Shown here: in pieces, positions 33,001 to 39,000 of the stretch
Layout: each line of letters opens with the position of its first letter
Position numbering within the stretch: the stretch's first letter is position 1
Assembly: GCA_965218425.1 (NCBI GenBank)
Contig: OZ244621.1
Span: 3,200,001-3,264,000, forward strand
DNA: 64,000 bases
From: an uncultured Candidatus Binatia bacterium
GTDB lineage: Bacteria; Desulfobacterota; Binatia; UBA9968; CAXXLF01
Direction: 5' to 3'
Position numbers: made by a program

Positions 33001-36000
33001 GGATCGGGCCAAAGTTGGCCATCGGTATCCTTTCGGGGATTCCATCAAAGGAACTGGTTCGCGCCCTCAGGGAGGGGGACCAGGTGCGCCTCGTTTCGAT
33101 TCCGGGAGTTGGGAAAAAGCTCGCGGAGCGTATGATTGTTGAGTTGAAAGACAAACTGATGGCCTTGCCCGACGAGAAGCAGATGGGTAGACAGGATGGC
33201 AACTCGCAATTGATGCGGGATGCGGTTTCCGCCCTTGTGAACCTGGGATACCGGCGTGGAGAATCGGAAAGTATCGTACGCGAAGTGGTTAACGGTGAAG
33301 CGGGGAACCTGGAAGTGGTTTTGAAAGAAACCCTGCGCAGGTTGAGTCAATAAGGATACAAAACTCATGGCACAACGAGGGGTCATTGAGCCCAAGGGGA
33401 CTTTGGCATCACCCATGGAGGTTAGTCCCAGTGAGATCTCTGTAATACCGACTGAAGAGGATCTAAAATTCGAGATGGGCCTAAGGCCCCGTGCCTTCGA
33501 CGAATATGTAGGACAGGACAAGGTCAAGGAGAACCTCAAAGTTGCCATTGCCGCAGCCCGAGGACGAAACGATGTCCTTGACCACTTCCTCTTCCATGGC
33601 CCGCCGGGGTTGGGGAAGACCTCATTGGCCTATATCATTTCTAGGGAGATGGGAGTCAATATTAAAGCCACCTCCGGCCCTGTGGTGGAGCGACCCGGAG
33701 ATCTGGCTGCGTTGCTCACCAACCTGGAGGAAGGCGATATCCTCTTTATCGACGAGATCCATCGTCTCAACCATGTGGTGGAGGAGGTTCTCTACCCGGC
33801 CATGGAGGACTACCAGATCGATGTCATGATCGGCCAGGGACCTTCTGCCCGATCCATCAAGCTGGAACTCAAGCGCTTCACCCTCATCGGCGCCACCACG
33901 CGATCGGGACTCCTCACACCTGCGCTGCGCAACCGGTTTGGTGCCGTCTTTCGTCTCGATTTCTATTCCCCCGAGACGCTGGTTCAGATTTTGCAAAGAT
34001 CCGCTTCCCTTCTGGGGACGAAGGGAAACCATGAGGGCATGGCAGAAATTGCACGCCGTTCCCGTGGCACCCCCAGGATCGCCAATCGTCTGCTGCGCAG
34101 GGTGCGGGATTACGCTCAGGTGAAGGCGGGCGGGGTGATTACCAAGGAAGCCACTCAGGGTGCCCTGGAGATGCTTGAAATTGACCACATAGGACTCGAT
34201 AAGATGGACATCATGATCCTGTTAACCTTAATTGATAAATTTGGCGGAGGTCCCGCGGGGCTAGAGACCCTTGCCGCCGCCATTGGAGAGGAAAAAGACA
34301 CCATCGAGGACGCCTATGAGCCCTACCTGATACAGGTGGGTTATCTTAACCGCACACCCAGGGGACGCGTGGCCACTCCTTTAGCCTATGAGCACTTTGG
34401 CCGGAGTAAGGAAACCATGCCGCCAAATGCGGGTGGGAAGCAACAGAACTTGCTTTGAGGAAGGGCAAAAAGTACAGTCATGGGGGATTTGGGAAAGGTC
34501 CTTGTTCTCGTTGGTGTACTGCTGGTGGTTCTGGGAGTTATTTTCTCCCTGGGAGCTAAGATCCCGTGGTTGGGGCAGCTCCCCGGTGATATAACCTTCA
34601 GGAGGGGCAACCTTGCCTTCTATTTTCCTTTGGCTACATGCCTGCTTATCAGCGTAATATTAACCCTTGTCCTTTACTTCTTCAAAAGATAGAATCTTTC
34701 CACTTTCCGTGACGGTCCACGGAGGGTCCGGTAGCTTATGGCCTCGCAGGACGGGTCAAAAGGAATAGAAGACGGCCTCAGGCAAGAGGAGGCTAAGGGG
34801 AGAAAGCGCGAAGGGATGGTGATGCTTGTCGCCACCCTGATGGTGCTGCTCTTTGCCTTCTTTGAAGTGCTGATCCCGGAACTCTCCACTGAATACTCCT
34901 TCACCAACAATATCGCATTCTTTCTCCTCGTTAACATCAACATTATTCTTCTCGTTTTGCTGGTGTTCCTGGTGGTGCGCAACCTGGTCAAGCTCCTGTT
35001 CGAGAGAAGGCGGAAGGTACTGGGATCACGCCTTCGGGTGCGGCTGGTCCTTGTCTTTGTTGGACTCTCGCTCATCCCCACCTTACTGCTATTTTTTATT
35101 GCTGGAGGATTCGTAACGAAGTCCTTTGAGAAATGGTTTGGGGTACAGGTGGCCAATGCGCTGCGCGGTTCGCTGGAAATAGGTGAGACCTATTACCAGA
35201 ACTCAGCGAATAACGCCCTGTTTTATGCCCGCCAGCTCAGCCAGCGTATCACCGAGGCGGGGCTGTTTGATCCCAAGTCTATGGACGGTCTGAAGGCCTT
35301 CGTGAAGGCCAAACAGCGCGAGTACAATCTGGGAACGGTGGAAGTCTTCTCCCCTGATCGTAAGCCCCTGGTGGTGGCCTTCAATGACAAAGTGCCCACG
35401 GGCATCACGGTCAAACCCGAATCCGAATTCCTCGATCGTGCGTTGCGTGGACTAGAGGTGACCCGGACTCAAGGGTTTGGAGAGGGAGACATTATCCGGG
35501 GAGGAGTCCCCGTAAAGAGTCAGGACGGAAAAATCCTGGGGGTCGTGGTGGTGGACTACTTTGTCCCCAGGAGTGTCACAAAGAGGGCACTTCAGATCAG
35601 GCGCTCCTATGATGAGCACAAGAACATGGCCATCTTTAAAGAGGATATTAAAAATACTTACCTGTTGACCCTGATCCTCTTTACTCTTGTGATTATCTTT
35701 TCCGCCACCTGGTTCGGCCTTTACCTGGCCAAGGGTATTACCGGTCCCATCCAAAAGCTTGCCGAGGGAACCCATGAGGTGGCCCACGGGAATTGGGACT
35801 ATCAGATCGACGCCAGCGGCGATGATGAGATTAGTATGCTCGTGGGTTCTTTCAACCAGATGACCCGCGATCTCAAGCAGATCAACGCGGAACTGGAACA
35901 GAGACGACGTTATATGGAGACCCTGTTGACCAACGTTACGGCAGGGGTGGTATTCGTGGATCGCCAGGGAAAGGTCCAAACCATCAACCGAGCTGCAGAA

Positions 36001-39000
36001 CAGATCTTGGGTCTGGATGCGGGTGAAGTGCTGGGACAACGATACGACAAGGTTTTTCAGTCTGATTCCCTTGTGGTTCTAGAGGAGATCATCGATCGTG
36101 TGCAGGGCGGCAGAGGCATCAAGCGCGAGGTCAGGGTTTCGAGAAGCGACCGGATCCTGACCTTGCTGGTGACCGCCGCTATCTTAAGGGATGATGGTGA
36201 ACAAGTGTTGGGAGTCATGATGTTTGTGGAGGACATCACCGAGATCCAGAAAGTACAACGGATGGGGGCATGGCGCGAGGTGGCCCGGCGCATTGCCCAC
36301 GAGATCAAAAATCCTCTCACTCCCATTCAGCTTTCCGCTCAACGTCTGAGGAAACGCTACGAGCATCTTCTGGAAAGCGACGGTGCAGTACTGGAAAAGT
36401 GCACTTCTACGATCATTAAACAGGTGGAGGAGCTCAAGAACCTGGTGAACGAATTCTCTAACTTCGCCCGTCTACCAACGGCGGAGCTGGCCCCCAATGA
36501 TCTCAACCAGGTGGTTAAAGAGGCTCTCTTTCTTTTCAAGGAGGGACACAGGGATTTGGAATTTCGCTTTGACAAGCGGGGAGACCTCCCGCTGCTCGAT
36601 CTGGACCGGGAACAGATCAAACGTGTCTTGATGAACCTGCTGGACAACGCGGTGGCTGTGGTGGGAGATGGCGGAAAAATCGAAATCTCCACCGAGTATG
36701 ACCCCTCCTTGCGTATCGTTCACCTGGAGGTTGCGGACAACGGTTGTGGATTGTCTCCCGAAGTGAGAGAAAATATTTTCGAACCTTACTTTTCTACCAA
36801 GAAAAACGGGACGGGTTTAGGTCTGGCCATCGTGAGCACCATCGTGTCGGATCACCGGGGTTATATACGGGTACGTCAAAACGAACCCACGGGTACGCGG
36901 TTTATCGTTGAATTGCCCGTGACGGCCCAGGACCAGCCCGTGGAATTGACAAAGCGAGAGCACGGACTTTCGATCTAACAGCTGGTCAAATGGAGTTAAA
37001 GGCGGAGGAGAACGCGGAGTGAAAAGGAACGAAAATACTATTTTAGTTATCGATGATGAGGACGGTGTCCGGGAGACCGTAAGGGAGATCCTCACGGACG
37101 AAGGCTATCAAGTGGTGGAGGCAAAAAATGAGGCCATGGTGCAGGATTTGATCCGCAAGGAGCTGCCCCATCTCGTCTTGCTGGATATCTGGATGCCCAA
37201 CGTGGATGGTATCGATCTTTTAAAACAGATCAAGGAGCAACACCCGAACCTTCGGGTGATTATGATCTCAGGTCACGGCAACATCCACACTGCTGTGACG
37301 GCGGCCAAACTAGGTGCATTTGACTTCTTGGAGAAACCGCTTTCCCTGGAAAGTTTATTGGAAACGGTTCAGCGGGCCTTGGAGGGGCAACCTGCCGTAA
37401 AGACGGCGGCAGAAGTAAAGAGAACCAAAACCACCCAAGGACAAGGGCGTCCTAGGGCGGTGACATCCAAACGATCACGCAAGAAGACCCTGCATCAGAG
37501 GACCCTGAAAAAGAGTGTGGTGGGTGCCGGCCATGGACTTCACTCCGGGGTGAAAACAGGCCTCATCCTCCATCCATTGCCTCCCAATAGCGGCATTCTT
37601 TTCTCCAGTATTTCGGCCGATGCCACGGTTCCCGCCCATCTCCACTACGTGCTCTCCACCGGGTATGCCACCTCTCTTCAAAAAAAGGGCATCATGGTCA
37701 AAACAGTGGAGCATTTTCTCGCCGCCCTGCACTCCTATGGAATTAGCAACCTGCTGGTCAAGATGCATGGAGAAATTCCCATCATGGATGGATCTGCGTT
37801 GGAATTTTGCCGCCTCATCGAAGAAGCCGGCATTGAGGAGCAGGATGCCCAGTGGTCGGAGATTGTGGTGGATAAGCCCTACCGAACGGAAACGGATGGG
37901 GGGGAATGGATTACTGTAGAGCCAGCAGACACCTTTGGGGTCCGCTATATTCTAAACTATCCAGCTCCCGTGGGCACCCAGGAGCACACCTATATCTACT
38001 CCGGTGCGGATTCCTTTCGAGAGGAGATTGCGGGGGCTCGTACCTTTGGATTTGTGAAGGATATCGAACATCTGGAAAAAATGGGACTGGCCAATGGAGG
38101 CCGCCTTAGCAATTGCATCCTGATTGGTGATGAGAAGATCATCAACACGGATCTTCGTTTCCCCGATGAATTGGCCAGGCACAAAATTCTGGACATCGTA
38201 GGCGATTTTTATTTGTTGGGGAAGCCCATTCGAGGCATGGTGACGGCTTGCATGACCGGACACTCGGACAATATTGCTTTACTCAGAGAGATGAAAAGGG
38301 GCATGGCCCTGGAAGAGGAGCCTCGGGTCAACCCTAGCTAGATCATGGCAAACTTCCAACCCTTTCCTCGTCTTTTCACTGTGGCCGAGGCGAGGTCCCT
38401 TCTTCCTACTTTGCGTCCTTTGATTGAACAGGTATTTCAAAGCCTCGAAGTTATGAAGAGCAAGAGCGAGGCGCTGATTCGCAGGGAGGGGCTCAACCCC
38501 GACAGCCCCGATTTACAAAAGAAGCTCGAAGCGGACGATACAGTTGCCGGCGTCATACGCCGGGTGGAAGGATTAGTGGAGCGGATCAACGATCTTGGCT
38601 GTGTCTGCAAGGGAGTGGAGCAGGGTCTTGTGGATTTTCCCTGCCTCTTGGGAGATGAGGTAGTGTTTCTCTGTTGGCAGTATGGCGAAGAAGACGTTAA
38701 CCATTGGCACAGTATCCATGATGGGTTTACGGGGCGCCGAACTTTGCTCGATCTAGATGAAGAGAAAAAGACTTCCTATCACTGATGGGAACCCTTCCTG
38801 AGGGTCCTCCTCGCCTTGAGCACCGGAATCGCGTCAATTTTCTCCTGAGAGATCATAGACCAATAGATTCCGCGTGGTTTGCCCTTGCTGGGACCAAGAG
38901 CCAGGACCTTTTCCGGGGTAATGATTGCGTTGATCGGTATGTCATGTTCGGTCATAGGTATCTCCGAATTGAGGAGTTGCAAGGGGTGGATGGTGGTGAC

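Follow-up and report, generated by a model that had tools for sequence, protein, structure and literature searches.

A response-regulator receiver fused to the only LpxC of a Candidatus Binatia bacterium suggests two-component control of lipid A synthesis

Introduction

LpxC is the enzyme that commits the cell to the synthesis of outer-membrane lipid A. In the DNA analysed here, a 64,000-nucleotide stretch of the genome of an uncultured Candidatus Binatia bacterium (hereafter the window), the gene for this enzyme also encodes an N-terminal response-regulator receiver domain and lies behind the gene of a sensor histidine kinase. An initial annotation proposed that LpxC is switched by phosphorylation of the enzyme itself. 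The locus therefore raises the question of whether an essential biosynthetic enzyme could be the direct output of a two-component system, and where such an arrangement would have come from. Coordinates refer to the window unless the contig is named.

Results

Organisation of the locus

The locus extends from 34738 to 38785 on the + strand and contained the following features.

34738..36978, + strand: NtrY-like membrane sensor histidine kinase, 746 aa
36979..37018, + strand: intergenic spacer of 40 nt; the ribosome-binding site GGAGGAG precedes the GTG start
37019..38341, + strand: receiver-LpxC fusion gene, 440 aa, GTG start, sole LpxC of the genome
37040..37369, + strand: receiver (REC) domain, residues 8-117, Response_reg match
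37184-37186, + strand: codon of the phospho-acceptor D56
37382..37486, + strand: linker, residues ~122-156, disordered by pLDDT and basic in this genome
37487..38314, + strand: LpxC deacetylase domain, residues 157-432 (PF03331, TIGR00325)
38345..38785, + strand: DUF2203 gene, 4 nt past the fusion stop (Pfam DUF2203, 113 bits)

The DUF2203 gene may be co-transcribed with the fusion, although it is doubtful that it belongs to the unit; among 20 class loci checked, DUF2203 was found downstream of the fusion only in the two closest (L018 and L019). No terminator-like site was found on the + strand between the kinase and the fusion, in a scan that overall did not rise above chance, and a Pfam domain search revealed no protease or adaptor gene linked to the locus.

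A six-frame search of the 4.46-Mb genome with PF03331 gave a single match, the fusion gene, which bears out the claim that this is the genome's sole LpxC. One match per genome was also obtained in 14/14 class genomes sampled. The gene lies apart from the rest of the pathway, as had been stated: lpxD, lpxA, lpxB and lpxK are clustered at 3,109,457-3,119,248 of the contig, approximately 118 kb upstream of the fusion. That the one LpxC of a genome with these four genes is the fusion lends indirect support to its predicted deacetylase activity on UDP-3-O-acyl-GlcNAc.

Domains and predicted structure of the fusion protein

The two domains lie on one gene, in agreement with the initial annotation. 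Response_reg matched residues 8-117 with 109.2 bits (cut-off 30.2; profile positions 1-110 of 111), trivially different from the 106 bits given previously, and LpxC (PF03331) matched residues 160-425 with 279.5 bits (cut-off 27; profile positions 1-266 of 268). TIGR00325 (lpxC) scored 250.9 bits (cut-off 187.25). All of the residues and motifs that were said to be kept could be seen in the translation, namely D12, D13, D56, S84 and K106 in the receiver and VEHF (230-233), HKILDIVGD (388-396) and GHS (414-416) in the LpxC domain. The set of zinc ligands and catalytic residues was complete (E231, H232, T342, H388, K389, D392, D396 and H415, which we take to correspond to E. coli LpxC E78, H79, T191, H238, K239, D242, D246 and H265), and by profile and residues the domain is assigned as the deacetylase LpxC.

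An AlphaFold2 model of the receiver gave a (beta-alpha)5 fold, with five strands alternating with five helices over residues 7-121 and block pLDDT values of 82-97; the best solved-structure matches were 4d6x and 5m7n, both presumably Brucella NtrX. The LpxC domain was modelled with block pLDDT mostly 86-98, and solved LpxC chains matched it at ~180 bits. The linker contained 11 K/R versus 2 D/E (residues 122-156) and had a pLDDT below 50 over residues 124-149. The top NCBIfam model for the receiver was NtrX (NF051870), with 138.5 bits over residues 7-155. Assignment of the whole protein to NtrX was rejected, as the cut-off is 600 bits and only positions 3-155 of the 452 in the profile were matched; no AAA+ or HTH domain was found by Pfam. 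A match confined to the receiver and below the cut-off indicates that the fusion is not NtrX but carries an NtrX/NtrC-type receiver. The LpxC-FabZ model (NF009667) was also rejected (211 bits, cut-off 465).

The upstream kinase

The kinase encoded 40 nt upstream has the domain order that had been reported: NtrY_N (28-238; 34.4 bits, cut-off 23.2), HAMP (330-380), PAS (393-500), HisKA (512-579) and HATPase_c (623-729), the last four also above their cut-offs. The H-box (HEIKNPLTPI), N-box (NLLDNAV), G1 (DNGCGL) and G2 (GTGLGLA) motifs were present in the translation. Reading of the sequence by eye suggests a topology of three hydrophobic helices near the N-terminus, then ~180 aa outside the cytoplasm (roughly 125-306), then a fourth helix. 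NtrY_N had no second match in the genome. No protein of the genome passed the NtrX cut-off, and the gene downstream of the kinase is the receiver-LpxC fusion.

In 20/20 class loci from 19 families, the gene immediately before the fusion, in the same orientation, was a homologue of the kinase (40-80% identity). The distance from kinase stop to fusion start was -8 to +122 nt in 19 of the 20, with the genes overlapping in five of these. As yebC-ruvCAB lies upstream in 16/20 of the loci, part of this adjacency may be inherited gene order; the kinase still adjoins the fusion in the 4 loci without these neighbours. Outside the class the kinase adjoined the fusion in 4/19 informative loci and was unlinked in 15/19. 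Each of five unlinked-fusion genomes tested (5/5) had exactly one full-length homologue of the kinase elsewhere, and no receiver was found within 1.2-1.5 kb on either side of it.

Conservation of the fusion

All of the 120 best homologues (120/120; 68-100% identity, 408-444 aa) carried both PF03331 and PF00072 and, where named at all, were called plain LpxC, as had been noted. In the sources the relatives bear the label Candidatus Binatia. Both domains were spanned by a fusion in 138/151 sampled genomes of the class.

An alignment of 49 fusions (33-90% identity) showed D13 and K106 in 49/49 and D56 and S84 each in 48/49; E231, H232, H388, K389, D392, D396 and H415 were present in 49/49 and T342 in 48/49. 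The LpxC zinc and catalytic residues were invariant in 20/20 class members. When 186 fusions were considered, the acceptor Asp was retained in 184 and the LpxC residues in 185; the key receiver residues read DDDSK in 170, DDDTK in 11 and EDDSK in 3, with the acceptor Asp gone in 2. To judge from these alignments, purifying selection keeps both domains intact.

The two exceptions, P0147 and P0152, belong to one small sub-lineage. P0147 has D56N in its receiver and P0152 has lost D12, D13, D56 and K106, and LpxC is intact in both. Phosphorylation is thus not always needed for a working enzyme, and the idea of LpxC being strictly blocked by its unphosphorylated receiver fits this awkwardly.

The linker was much less constrained, at 23-61 aa with no conserved sequence among the 49 fusions. 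Its basic character, which the initial annotation had included in the architecture, holds for this protein but not as part of a conserved device: strongly basic linkers were confined to its own family and order (net +7 to +13 in the order), whereas other families of the class had net charges of -5 to +3. The C-terminal tail was short and not conserved in the class alignment.

Wider family and evolutionary origin

The fusion is not peculiar to one lineage; fused-clade LpxC was found in 103/401 sampled genomes of the phylum. This count includes long forms in which a decayed sigma-54 AAA+ module lies between the receiver and LpxC. Of 17 long fusions, 15 kept the Walker A lysine and none had GAFTGA (0/17) or the Walker B Glu (0/17). 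The AAA+ module was lost several times and the receiver was retained. On these comparisons, the window protein is the shortest, reduced end of a wider receiver-(decayed AAA+)-LpxC family. In a quick-mode, unrooted LpxC tree, 59/59 fusions fell on one side of a branch (SH-aLRT 99), apart from 55 unfused LpxCs. Only six positions distinguished the fused-clade LpxC domains from the unfused ones, so that no obvious docking patch is visible on the LpxC domain.

Twenty unfused lpxC loci were hand-picked rather than sampled at random, each from a different family and on a long contig, among the best-scoring entries. In 12/20 families lpxC was followed by an orthologous kinase, 39-50% identical to the window kinase, and in 11 of these 12 a sigma-54 regulator came next, the contig of the twelfth ending first. 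This module is absent from the initial annotation. The 11 regulators appeared complete in their AAA+ motifs (Walker A 11/11, GAFTGA 10/11, Walker B DE 11/11).

The window receiver shared 45-55% identity with the receivers of regulators encoded beside lpxC and 44-56% with those of the long fusions, but only 37-42% with those of the two further NtrC-like regulators that its genome encodes. The signatures SGHG...DF(I/L)EKP and L.DEG were common to the window receiver and the lpxC-side regulators and were absent from the other two. These sequences therefore point to a likely ancestor in which lpxC and the genes of an NtrY-like kinase and a sigma-54 regulator formed one dedicated module. The regulator would have joined LpxC, ceased to act in transcription and, in this class, shed the whole AAA+ module.

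Discussion

Proposed control of LpxC by phosphorylation

A sole LpxC that carries a receiver and adjoins a kinase points to a so far undescribed switch by which signalling would act directly on outer-membrane synthesis. Both domains are intact, the gene is the sole LpxC, and its architecture and its linkage to the kinase are class-wide; this makes two-component input into LpxC a well-founded prediction and to this extent supports the phospho-switch interpretation given before. The switch itself we infer, as we do phosphotransfer, its effect on LpxC, and the mechanism and sign of control; observed directly were the architecture, the intact residues for catalysis and for accepting phosphate, the conservation, the gene linkage and the range of related forms. 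We hold it to be rather probable that LpxC is itself the output of the system and is controlled by phosphorylation of its receiver by this kinase. A renewed literature search, like the earlier one, found no paper describing a receiver-LpxC fusion.

The NtrY-like kinase, combining a membrane/periplasmic sensor with a cytoplasmic PAS domain, would phosphorylate D56 of the receiver; linkage and the subfamily signatures argue for this pairing. The phosphorylation state of the receiver would then set the amount of LpxC activity and with it the flux into lipid A. Since the two domains are tethered by a linker that is disordered in the model and has no conserved sequence, an intramolecular switch of the CheB type would be the likeliest mechanism. 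In one state the receiver would sit against the LpxC domain and restrict access of the substrate, and in the other it would detach and probably form dimers by way of its alpha4-beta5-alpha5 face. This specific contact model is tentative and carries perhaps half of the confidence that we place in phospho-control as such. The sign is ambiguous, as sigma-54 ancestry points to activation whereas alphaproteobacterial NtrYX points to less lpxC mRNA. With an ancestral sigma-54 activator 'kinase on' would mean more lpxC, and by this analogy we lean slightly towards phosphorylation raising LpxC activity.

Alternative explanations

The receiver might instead act on the stability of LpxC, as a regulated degron or adaptor-binding module that alters turnover by an AAA+ protease and not the catalytic rate. 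The degron of E. coli LpxC lies in its C-terminal tail, and with the tail short and unconserved here, degradation would need another handle, for which the long disordered linker of the model offers a plausible protease entry site. Proteolysis through FtsH/LapB sets LpxC abundance in E. coli, and a similar role of Lon is proposed for some Alphaproteobacteria, according to the available text of PMC12444477. We nevertheless regard this explanation as unlikely, given that no protease or adaptor gene was linked to the locus, nothing in the sequence resembled a degron and the nearest relatives of the receiver are transcription factors rather than protease adaptors. A switch in assembly or localisation, through dimerisation, AAA+ ring formation in the long forms or docking on the membrane kinase, would alter the place of action or the oligomeric state of LpxC and leave the active site ungated. 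The Walker A lysine retained without the Walker B Glu is what one would expect of an assembly module that binds ATP but does not hydrolyse it, phosphorylation makes NtrC-type receivers dimerise, and the basic linker found in the window protein's own order could bind acidic membranes. LpxC is, against this, a monomeric soluble enzyme, the AAA+ module was lost repeatedly when the receiver was not, and linker basicity is not conserved in the class, and we consider such a switch quite improbable.

It is also conceivable that LpxC works as an ordinary enzyme and that its receiver is an idle passenger or only drains phosphate from the kinase, whose real output would be another regulator. The two other NtrC-like regulators of the genome and the intact LpxC of the dead-receiver sub-lineage could be read in this way. 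Those two regulators carry different receiver signatures, however, and no receiver was found within 1.2-1.5 kb on either side of the unlinked kinase in the five genomes tested. Retention of the acceptor in 184/186 fusions across class-deep divergence (down to 47% identity), and the derivation of the fusion from a regulator already dedicated to lpxC, further reduce this explanation to a very slim chance.

Comparison with known systems

CheB, PleD/WspR and RpfG are response regulators with enzymatic outputs. The fusion resembles them in joining a receiver by a flexible linker to a catalytic domain, and phospho-dependent contact between receiver and enzyme serves as the working model by analogy. 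To our knowledge, response-regulator output domains do not include a zinc deacetylase from an essential biosynthetic pathway, and the literature search returned none.

In enterobacteria, FtsH, LapB (YciM) and YejM control LpxC by regulated proteolysis through a C-terminal degron, in contrast to the unconserved tail and phospho-receiver input found here. A LapB zinc-ribbon model, the control for which was unspecific, gave no match. The words receiver, fusion, fused and response regulator are all absent from the available portion of a review of LpxC control (PMC12444477). Another natural LpxC fusion, the bifunctional LpxC-FabZ (NF009667; preprint 10.1101/2025.10.16.682753, as far as its available text goes), shows that LpxC tolerates belonging to a larger protein, although its partner is a C-terminal metabolic enzyme and that of the window fusion an N-terminal signalling domain.

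The kinase shares its NtrY_N-HAMP-PAS-HisKA-HATPase order with alphaproteobacterial NtrY/NtrX systems (R. sphaeroides, C. crescentus and Brucella), and NtrX is the best NCBIfam model for the receiver. NtrYX likewise influences lpxC and LPS in Alphaproteobacteria. [quoted passage not shown] NtrX differs from the fusion in that it is a transcription factor of REC-AAA+-HTH build, controls dozens of genes and is reported to act indirectly on lpxC.

A two-component system dedicated to lpxC is known from Desulfovibrio vulgaris, where the available text of Rajeev et al. 2011 (PMC3333781) gives lpxC as the single DNA target of the sigma-54 response regulator DVU2934, whose kinase is DVU2931. The same text places lpxC of S. 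fumaroxidans directly upstream of the orthologous operon. The likeness to the present system rests on that description and on gene order. Control in Desulfovibrio is transcriptional and exerted by a separate DNA-binding activator, whereas here the receiver is covalently attached to the enzyme and the AAA+ and DNA-binding parts are gone. Taken with the unfused lpxC-kinase-sigma-54 module, the Desulfovibrio regulator makes the fusion look like a transcriptional lpxC circuit that has been hard-wired onto the enzyme.

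The fusion gene and its kinase neighbour

The window carries an NtrY-like sensor kinase gene followed directly by the gene for the receiver-LpxC fusion.

Kinase and fusion genes in the window
34738–36978, + strand, kinase gene, open frame of 746 aa
37019–38341, + strand, receiver-LpxC fusion gene, open frame of 440 aa with a GTG start

A GGAGGAG ribosome-binding site preceded the GTG of the fusion, and 40 nt separated it from the stop of the kinase gene. Pfam analysis of the fusion placed Response_reg at residues 8–117 (109.2 bits) and LpxC at residues 160–425 (279.5 bits, positions 1–266 of the 268 in the profile); the NCBIfam lpxC equivalog model reached 250.9 bits (cut-off 187.25). 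The kinase contained NtrY_N, HAMP, PAS, HisKA and HATPase_c domains (Pfam), and its H, N, G1 and G2 boxes were readable in the translation.

The initial annotation had described this protein as a receiver domain joined to LpxC, and that observation was confirmed: every motif it had listed was found in the translation. A six-frame PF03331 search of the 4.46-Mb single-contig genome gave one match, this gene, in agreement with the claim that it is the sole LpxC, and the gene does lie apart from the lpx cluster, as lpxD, lpxA, lpxB and lpxK were grouped approximately 118 kb upstream. Both domains were also present in 120 of the 120 best database homologues, which were named plain LpxC where a name was given and whose source labels were Candidatus Binatia or Deltaproteobacteria MAGs. 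The linker had been called basic; this holds in the window (net charge +9), but strongly basic linkers were restricted to the window's family and order, with charges of -5 to +3 in other families of the class.

An AlphaFold2 model of the fusion, built on an input alignment of 49 sequences (mean pLDDT 87.9, pTM 0.71), had a (beta-alpha)5 receiver (residues 7–121) and an LpxC fold (from residue 157), both well defined, and a linker whose residues 124–149 fell below pLDDT 50. Across 49 fusions the linker was 23–61 aa long and unconserved in sequence. Among solved structures, sequence comparison matched the receiver best to 4d6x and 5m7n (~101 bits), which we take to be Brucella NtrX. NtrX was also the top NCBIfam model for the receiver, with 138.5 bits over residues 7–155, far under its full-length cut-off of 600. 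The genome encoded no NtrY_N protein besides the kinase, and the two further NtrC-like regulators encoded elsewhere in it both scored below the NtrX cut-off.

A scan of 34300–39000 found one promoter-like and six terminator-like sites, not above shuffled sequences. Open frames of 950–1420 aa had raised the suspicion of a kinase-receiver-LpxC triple fusion; these proved to be GC-rich open frames, the kinase and the fusion being either out of frame with each other or kept apart by stops. A DUF2203 gene (38345–38785) began 4 nt past the fusion stop, and a homologue was found downstream of the fusion at only two of 20 class loci (L018 and L019), the closest ones. Convergent with the kinase-fusion operon was a gene for a DUF2333 protein (39552–40628, - strand; 496 bits), which had no NCBIfam name.

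Conservation across the class

Six-frame searches of 151 Binatia genomes with the fusion as query gave a match in 148, and in 138 of the 151 a single alignment spanned both domains (47–100% identity, 19 families). The other ten matches were contig-end pieces, frameshifted or split copies (G451, G410, G494, G478 and G534) or weak. In three of the 151 genomes, each 90–94% complete, the query found nothing. One searched genome (G474) is flagged as unpublished, and none of the claims rests on it. PF03331 gave one match in each of the 14 class genomes that were part of the phylum sample described below.

Alignment of 20 fusions from 19 families revealed receiver residues D12, D13, D56, F103, K106 and P107 to be invariant, with S84 in 19 of the 20, and LpxC residues E231, H232, T342, H388, K389, D392, D396 and H415 were likewise invariant. 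The C-terminal tail beyond the last helix was short and variable in these 20 proteins. Separately, P0173, a fusion of 432 aa, has R-S in place of the LpxC catalytic E-H pair, which could mean a pseudoenzyme or an error in the sequence.

A full-length kinase homologue (40–80% identity) lay directly upstream of the fusion on the same strand at all 20 class loci fetched (19 families). The distance from kinase stop to fusion start was -8 to +122 nt in 19 of them, five of which overlapped; at the twentieth, in G451, kinase and fusion were both frameshifted. Directly upstream of the window's kinase and on the same strand is yebC-ruvC-ruvA-ruvB (31393–34458). As these genes were found upstream at 16 of the 20 class loci, part of the kinase-fusion adjacency may reflect inherited gene order; the four loci without them keep the kinase-fusion pair. 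The frameshifted G451 locus (L030, contig C19) and G410 belong to one genus in which both genes seem frameshifted, and either assembly error or real decay is possible.

Long forms and distribution beyond the class

The fusion was scored against 1.84 billion cluster representatives, of which 1805 matched with E <= 1e-30. Besides short fusions, these included many proteins of 650–736 aa with a C-terminal LpxC. A Pfam run on 43 of the matches identified 19 short receiver-LpxC proteins, three intermediates (483–505 aa) and 15 long proteins with the order receiver, Sigma54_activat, AAA_lid_14, LpxC; one of the latter, P0141, still had an HTH_8 match just ahead of LpxC. Five of the 43 were AAA-LpxC proteins that lacked a receiver and were probably truncated, and one was unrelated. 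Long and intermediate forms carried source labels of Deltaproteobacteria, Nitrospinota and Candidatus Entotheonellia MAGs, and one such cluster bears the JGI name NtrX. Long forms also turned up when species genomes were scanned, the MAGs concerned being labelled Deltaproteobacteria, Thermodesulfobacteriota and Nitrospirae.

In 401 genomes drawn evenly from the window's GTDB phylum, Desulfobacterota, LpxC was matched in 378, and an LpxC of the fused clade (E <= 1e-75) was present in 103 genomes (68 of 255 genera), 14 within the class and 89 outside it. The alignment covered both domains in 44 of the 89, as it does for the protein of the window, and the LpxC part only in 45; the open frames of these 45 were 690–837 aa (28), 630 aa (1), 450–497 aa (13) or other lengths (3). 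In the loci fetched, the receiver was contiguous with LpxC in six of six long and three of three intermediate forms, the long forms including the AAA+ part too. The receiver-LpxC fusion is real, ancient and widespread.

Five genomes of the phylum sample (G312, G034, G199, G258 and G074) had two PF03331 matches each, and G312 encoded a fused and an unfused LpxC together. Such two-LpxC genomes could be natural test cases for a division of labour.

Kinase linkage was looser outside the class. Among 20 fused loci from other families, one of which was cut by a contig end, the kinase lay directly upstream of the fusion in four of the 19 informative loci. Of the further long-form loci, L038 and L039 had the kinase upstream and L040 and L041 did not. 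Five genomes with a stand-alone fusion each encoded exactly one full-length kinase homologue elsewhere (32–48% identity), and no receiver was found within flanks of 1.2–1.5 kb on either side of it. This is consistent with the orphan kinase serving the orphan fusion. At L041 (8045–9802), lolA and a gene for an M50 (RseP-like) protease, both with cell-envelope functions, were located less than 2 kb after the long-form fusion.

Unfused lpxC loci and decay of the AAA+ module

Twenty loci with an unfused lpxC were examined, one per family, hand-picked from the best-scoring matches on long contigs and so not a random sample; in 12 of these 20, a full-length kinase homologue, with 39–50% identity to the kinase of the window, lay 0.3–1.4 kb downstream of lpxC on the same strand. 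A regulator of 452–477 aa came next in 11 of the 12, the twelfth contig ending first. The receivers of these free regulators had 45–55% identity to that of the window, which shared 44–56% identity with long-fusion receivers and 42% and 37% with the other two NtrC-like regulators that its genome encodes. The signatures SGHG...DF(I/L)EKP and L.DEG were common to the window's receiver and the lpxC-linked regulators, and were missing from those two other regulators.

When aligned with the long fusions, the free regulators were seen to retain Walker A (11/11), a GAFTGA-type loop (10/11) and the Walker B Asp-Glu (11/11). The 17 long fusions kept the Walker A lysine in 15 cases, and the GAFTGA loop and the Walker B glutamate in none. 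A module of lpxC, kinase and sigma-54 regulator is likely to have been the ancestor of the fusion. The order was lpxC, kinase, regulator in the unfused module (12 of 20 loci, L077–L095) and kinase, regulator::lpxC in the fused one, so that fusion would have needed a rearrangement; speculatively, this could have been a tandem duplication of the module and a subsequent deletion.

In an unrooted maximum-likelihood phylogeny of 118 LpxC domains (LG+C20, quick mode, SH-aLRT), a branch with support 99 separated all 59 fusions from 55 unfused LpxCs; four short rows classed as unfused, possibly fragments, fell inside the fused side. A single clade (support 99) held 19 of the 20 class sequences; it was placed among long forms, a nesting with weak support (83–93). 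At other places in the tree, too, short or intermediate forms stood beside long ones: P0142 beside P0143 (support 100), and P0147 beside P0130 and P0152 (support 99). This suggests more than one loss of the AAA+ module. The tree being unrooted, we infer the direction from long to short form from the decay of the domains.

Proposed mechanism

The predicted function of the fusion, control of LpxC, is well motivated. The fusion is apparently in one operon with its orthologous kinase, which would phosphorylate D56, and the phosphorylation state would then set LpxC activity. A CheB-like intramolecular contact between receiver and LpxC, altered by phosphorylation, is favoured over rigid coupling because the tether is flexible and unconserved. 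Prediction of a complex between the receiver (1–122) and the LpxC domain (157–432), run without controls, gave no verdict (score 0.00) and speaks neither for nor against such a contact. Only six residues of the LpxC domain were specific to the fused clade (G181, Y240, K248, C264, P315 and L368). Descent from an obligate sigma-54 activator suggests that phosphorylation would lead to more LpxC. Alphaproteobacterial NtrYX data point to the opposite sign: in the available text of the Rhodobacter sphaeroides study, loss of NtrYX raised lpxC mRNA 8.8-fold and increased LPS, an effect reported as indirect (PMC7240162), and Caulobacter is added as an NtrYX-lpxC case in the available text of a 2025 review (PMC12444477).

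Phosphorylation might instead direct proteolysis of LpxC, or act as a switch of assembly or localisation, or the receiver might be a passenger or a phosphate sink. A search of the genome for the LapB zinc ribbon (PF18073) gave no match; the model also matches 10 of 14 control genomes, Gram-positives included, which leaves this negative with little weight. As regards a passenger role, a small sub-lineage combines a dead receiver with intact LpxC residues: P0147 carries D56N and its sister in the LpxC tree, P0152, lacks D12, D13, D56 and K106, which shows that phosphorylation is not indispensable to the enzyme. A receiver of the lpxC-regulator subfamily and the sole LpxC, both intact and joined through a disordered linker, have been kept together over class-level divergence. 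On balance we lean, if narrowly, towards LpxC, an essential biosynthetic enzyme, being gated directly by a two-component phosphorelay, a device that would have been born when a dedicated sigma-54 activator was fused to the product of its own target, the transcription machinery then decaying, with the GAFTGA loop and Walker B glutamate lost first and the whole AAA+ module next.

Significance and comparison with known systems

If direct gating is correct, a phosphorelay on LpxC would set the lipid A flux of the outer membrane in roughly one in four of the genomes sampled from a large phylum, and living intermediates would document one regulatory link moving naturally from the transcriptional to the post-translational level. 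Extant genomes hold a rare graded series, from separate activator through fused activator with a decayed ATPase to bare receiver-enzyme, that shows how gene fusion can rewire a regulatory link. The signal of the kinase would indicate what these uncultured bacteria sense in order to keep their outer membrane in balance.

Lipid A synthesis is committed at the LpxC step, which is also its most tightly controlled one, and LpxC has long been a target for antibiotics. A 2025 review of the field deals with control by proteolysis, by transcription and by related mechanisms, and the words receiver, fusion, fused and response regulator are absent from its available text (PMC12444477). We found no published description of LpxC as a response-regulator output or under phospho-control; censuses of response regulators may list the architecture. 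Response regulators with enzymatic outputs are already known, and LpxC as the output was not in any paper found. With a phospho-receiver built into it, LpxC would be under a new kind of control and would itself be a new output domain of response regulators.

The unfused gene order found here matches a published link between lpxC and a regulator. According to the available text of that study, the sigma-54 regulator DVU2934 of Desulfovibrio vulgaris, encoded with the kinase DVU2931, has lpxC as its single DNA target, and in Syntrophobacter fumaroxidans lpxC lies directly upstream of the orthologous operon (PMC3333781).
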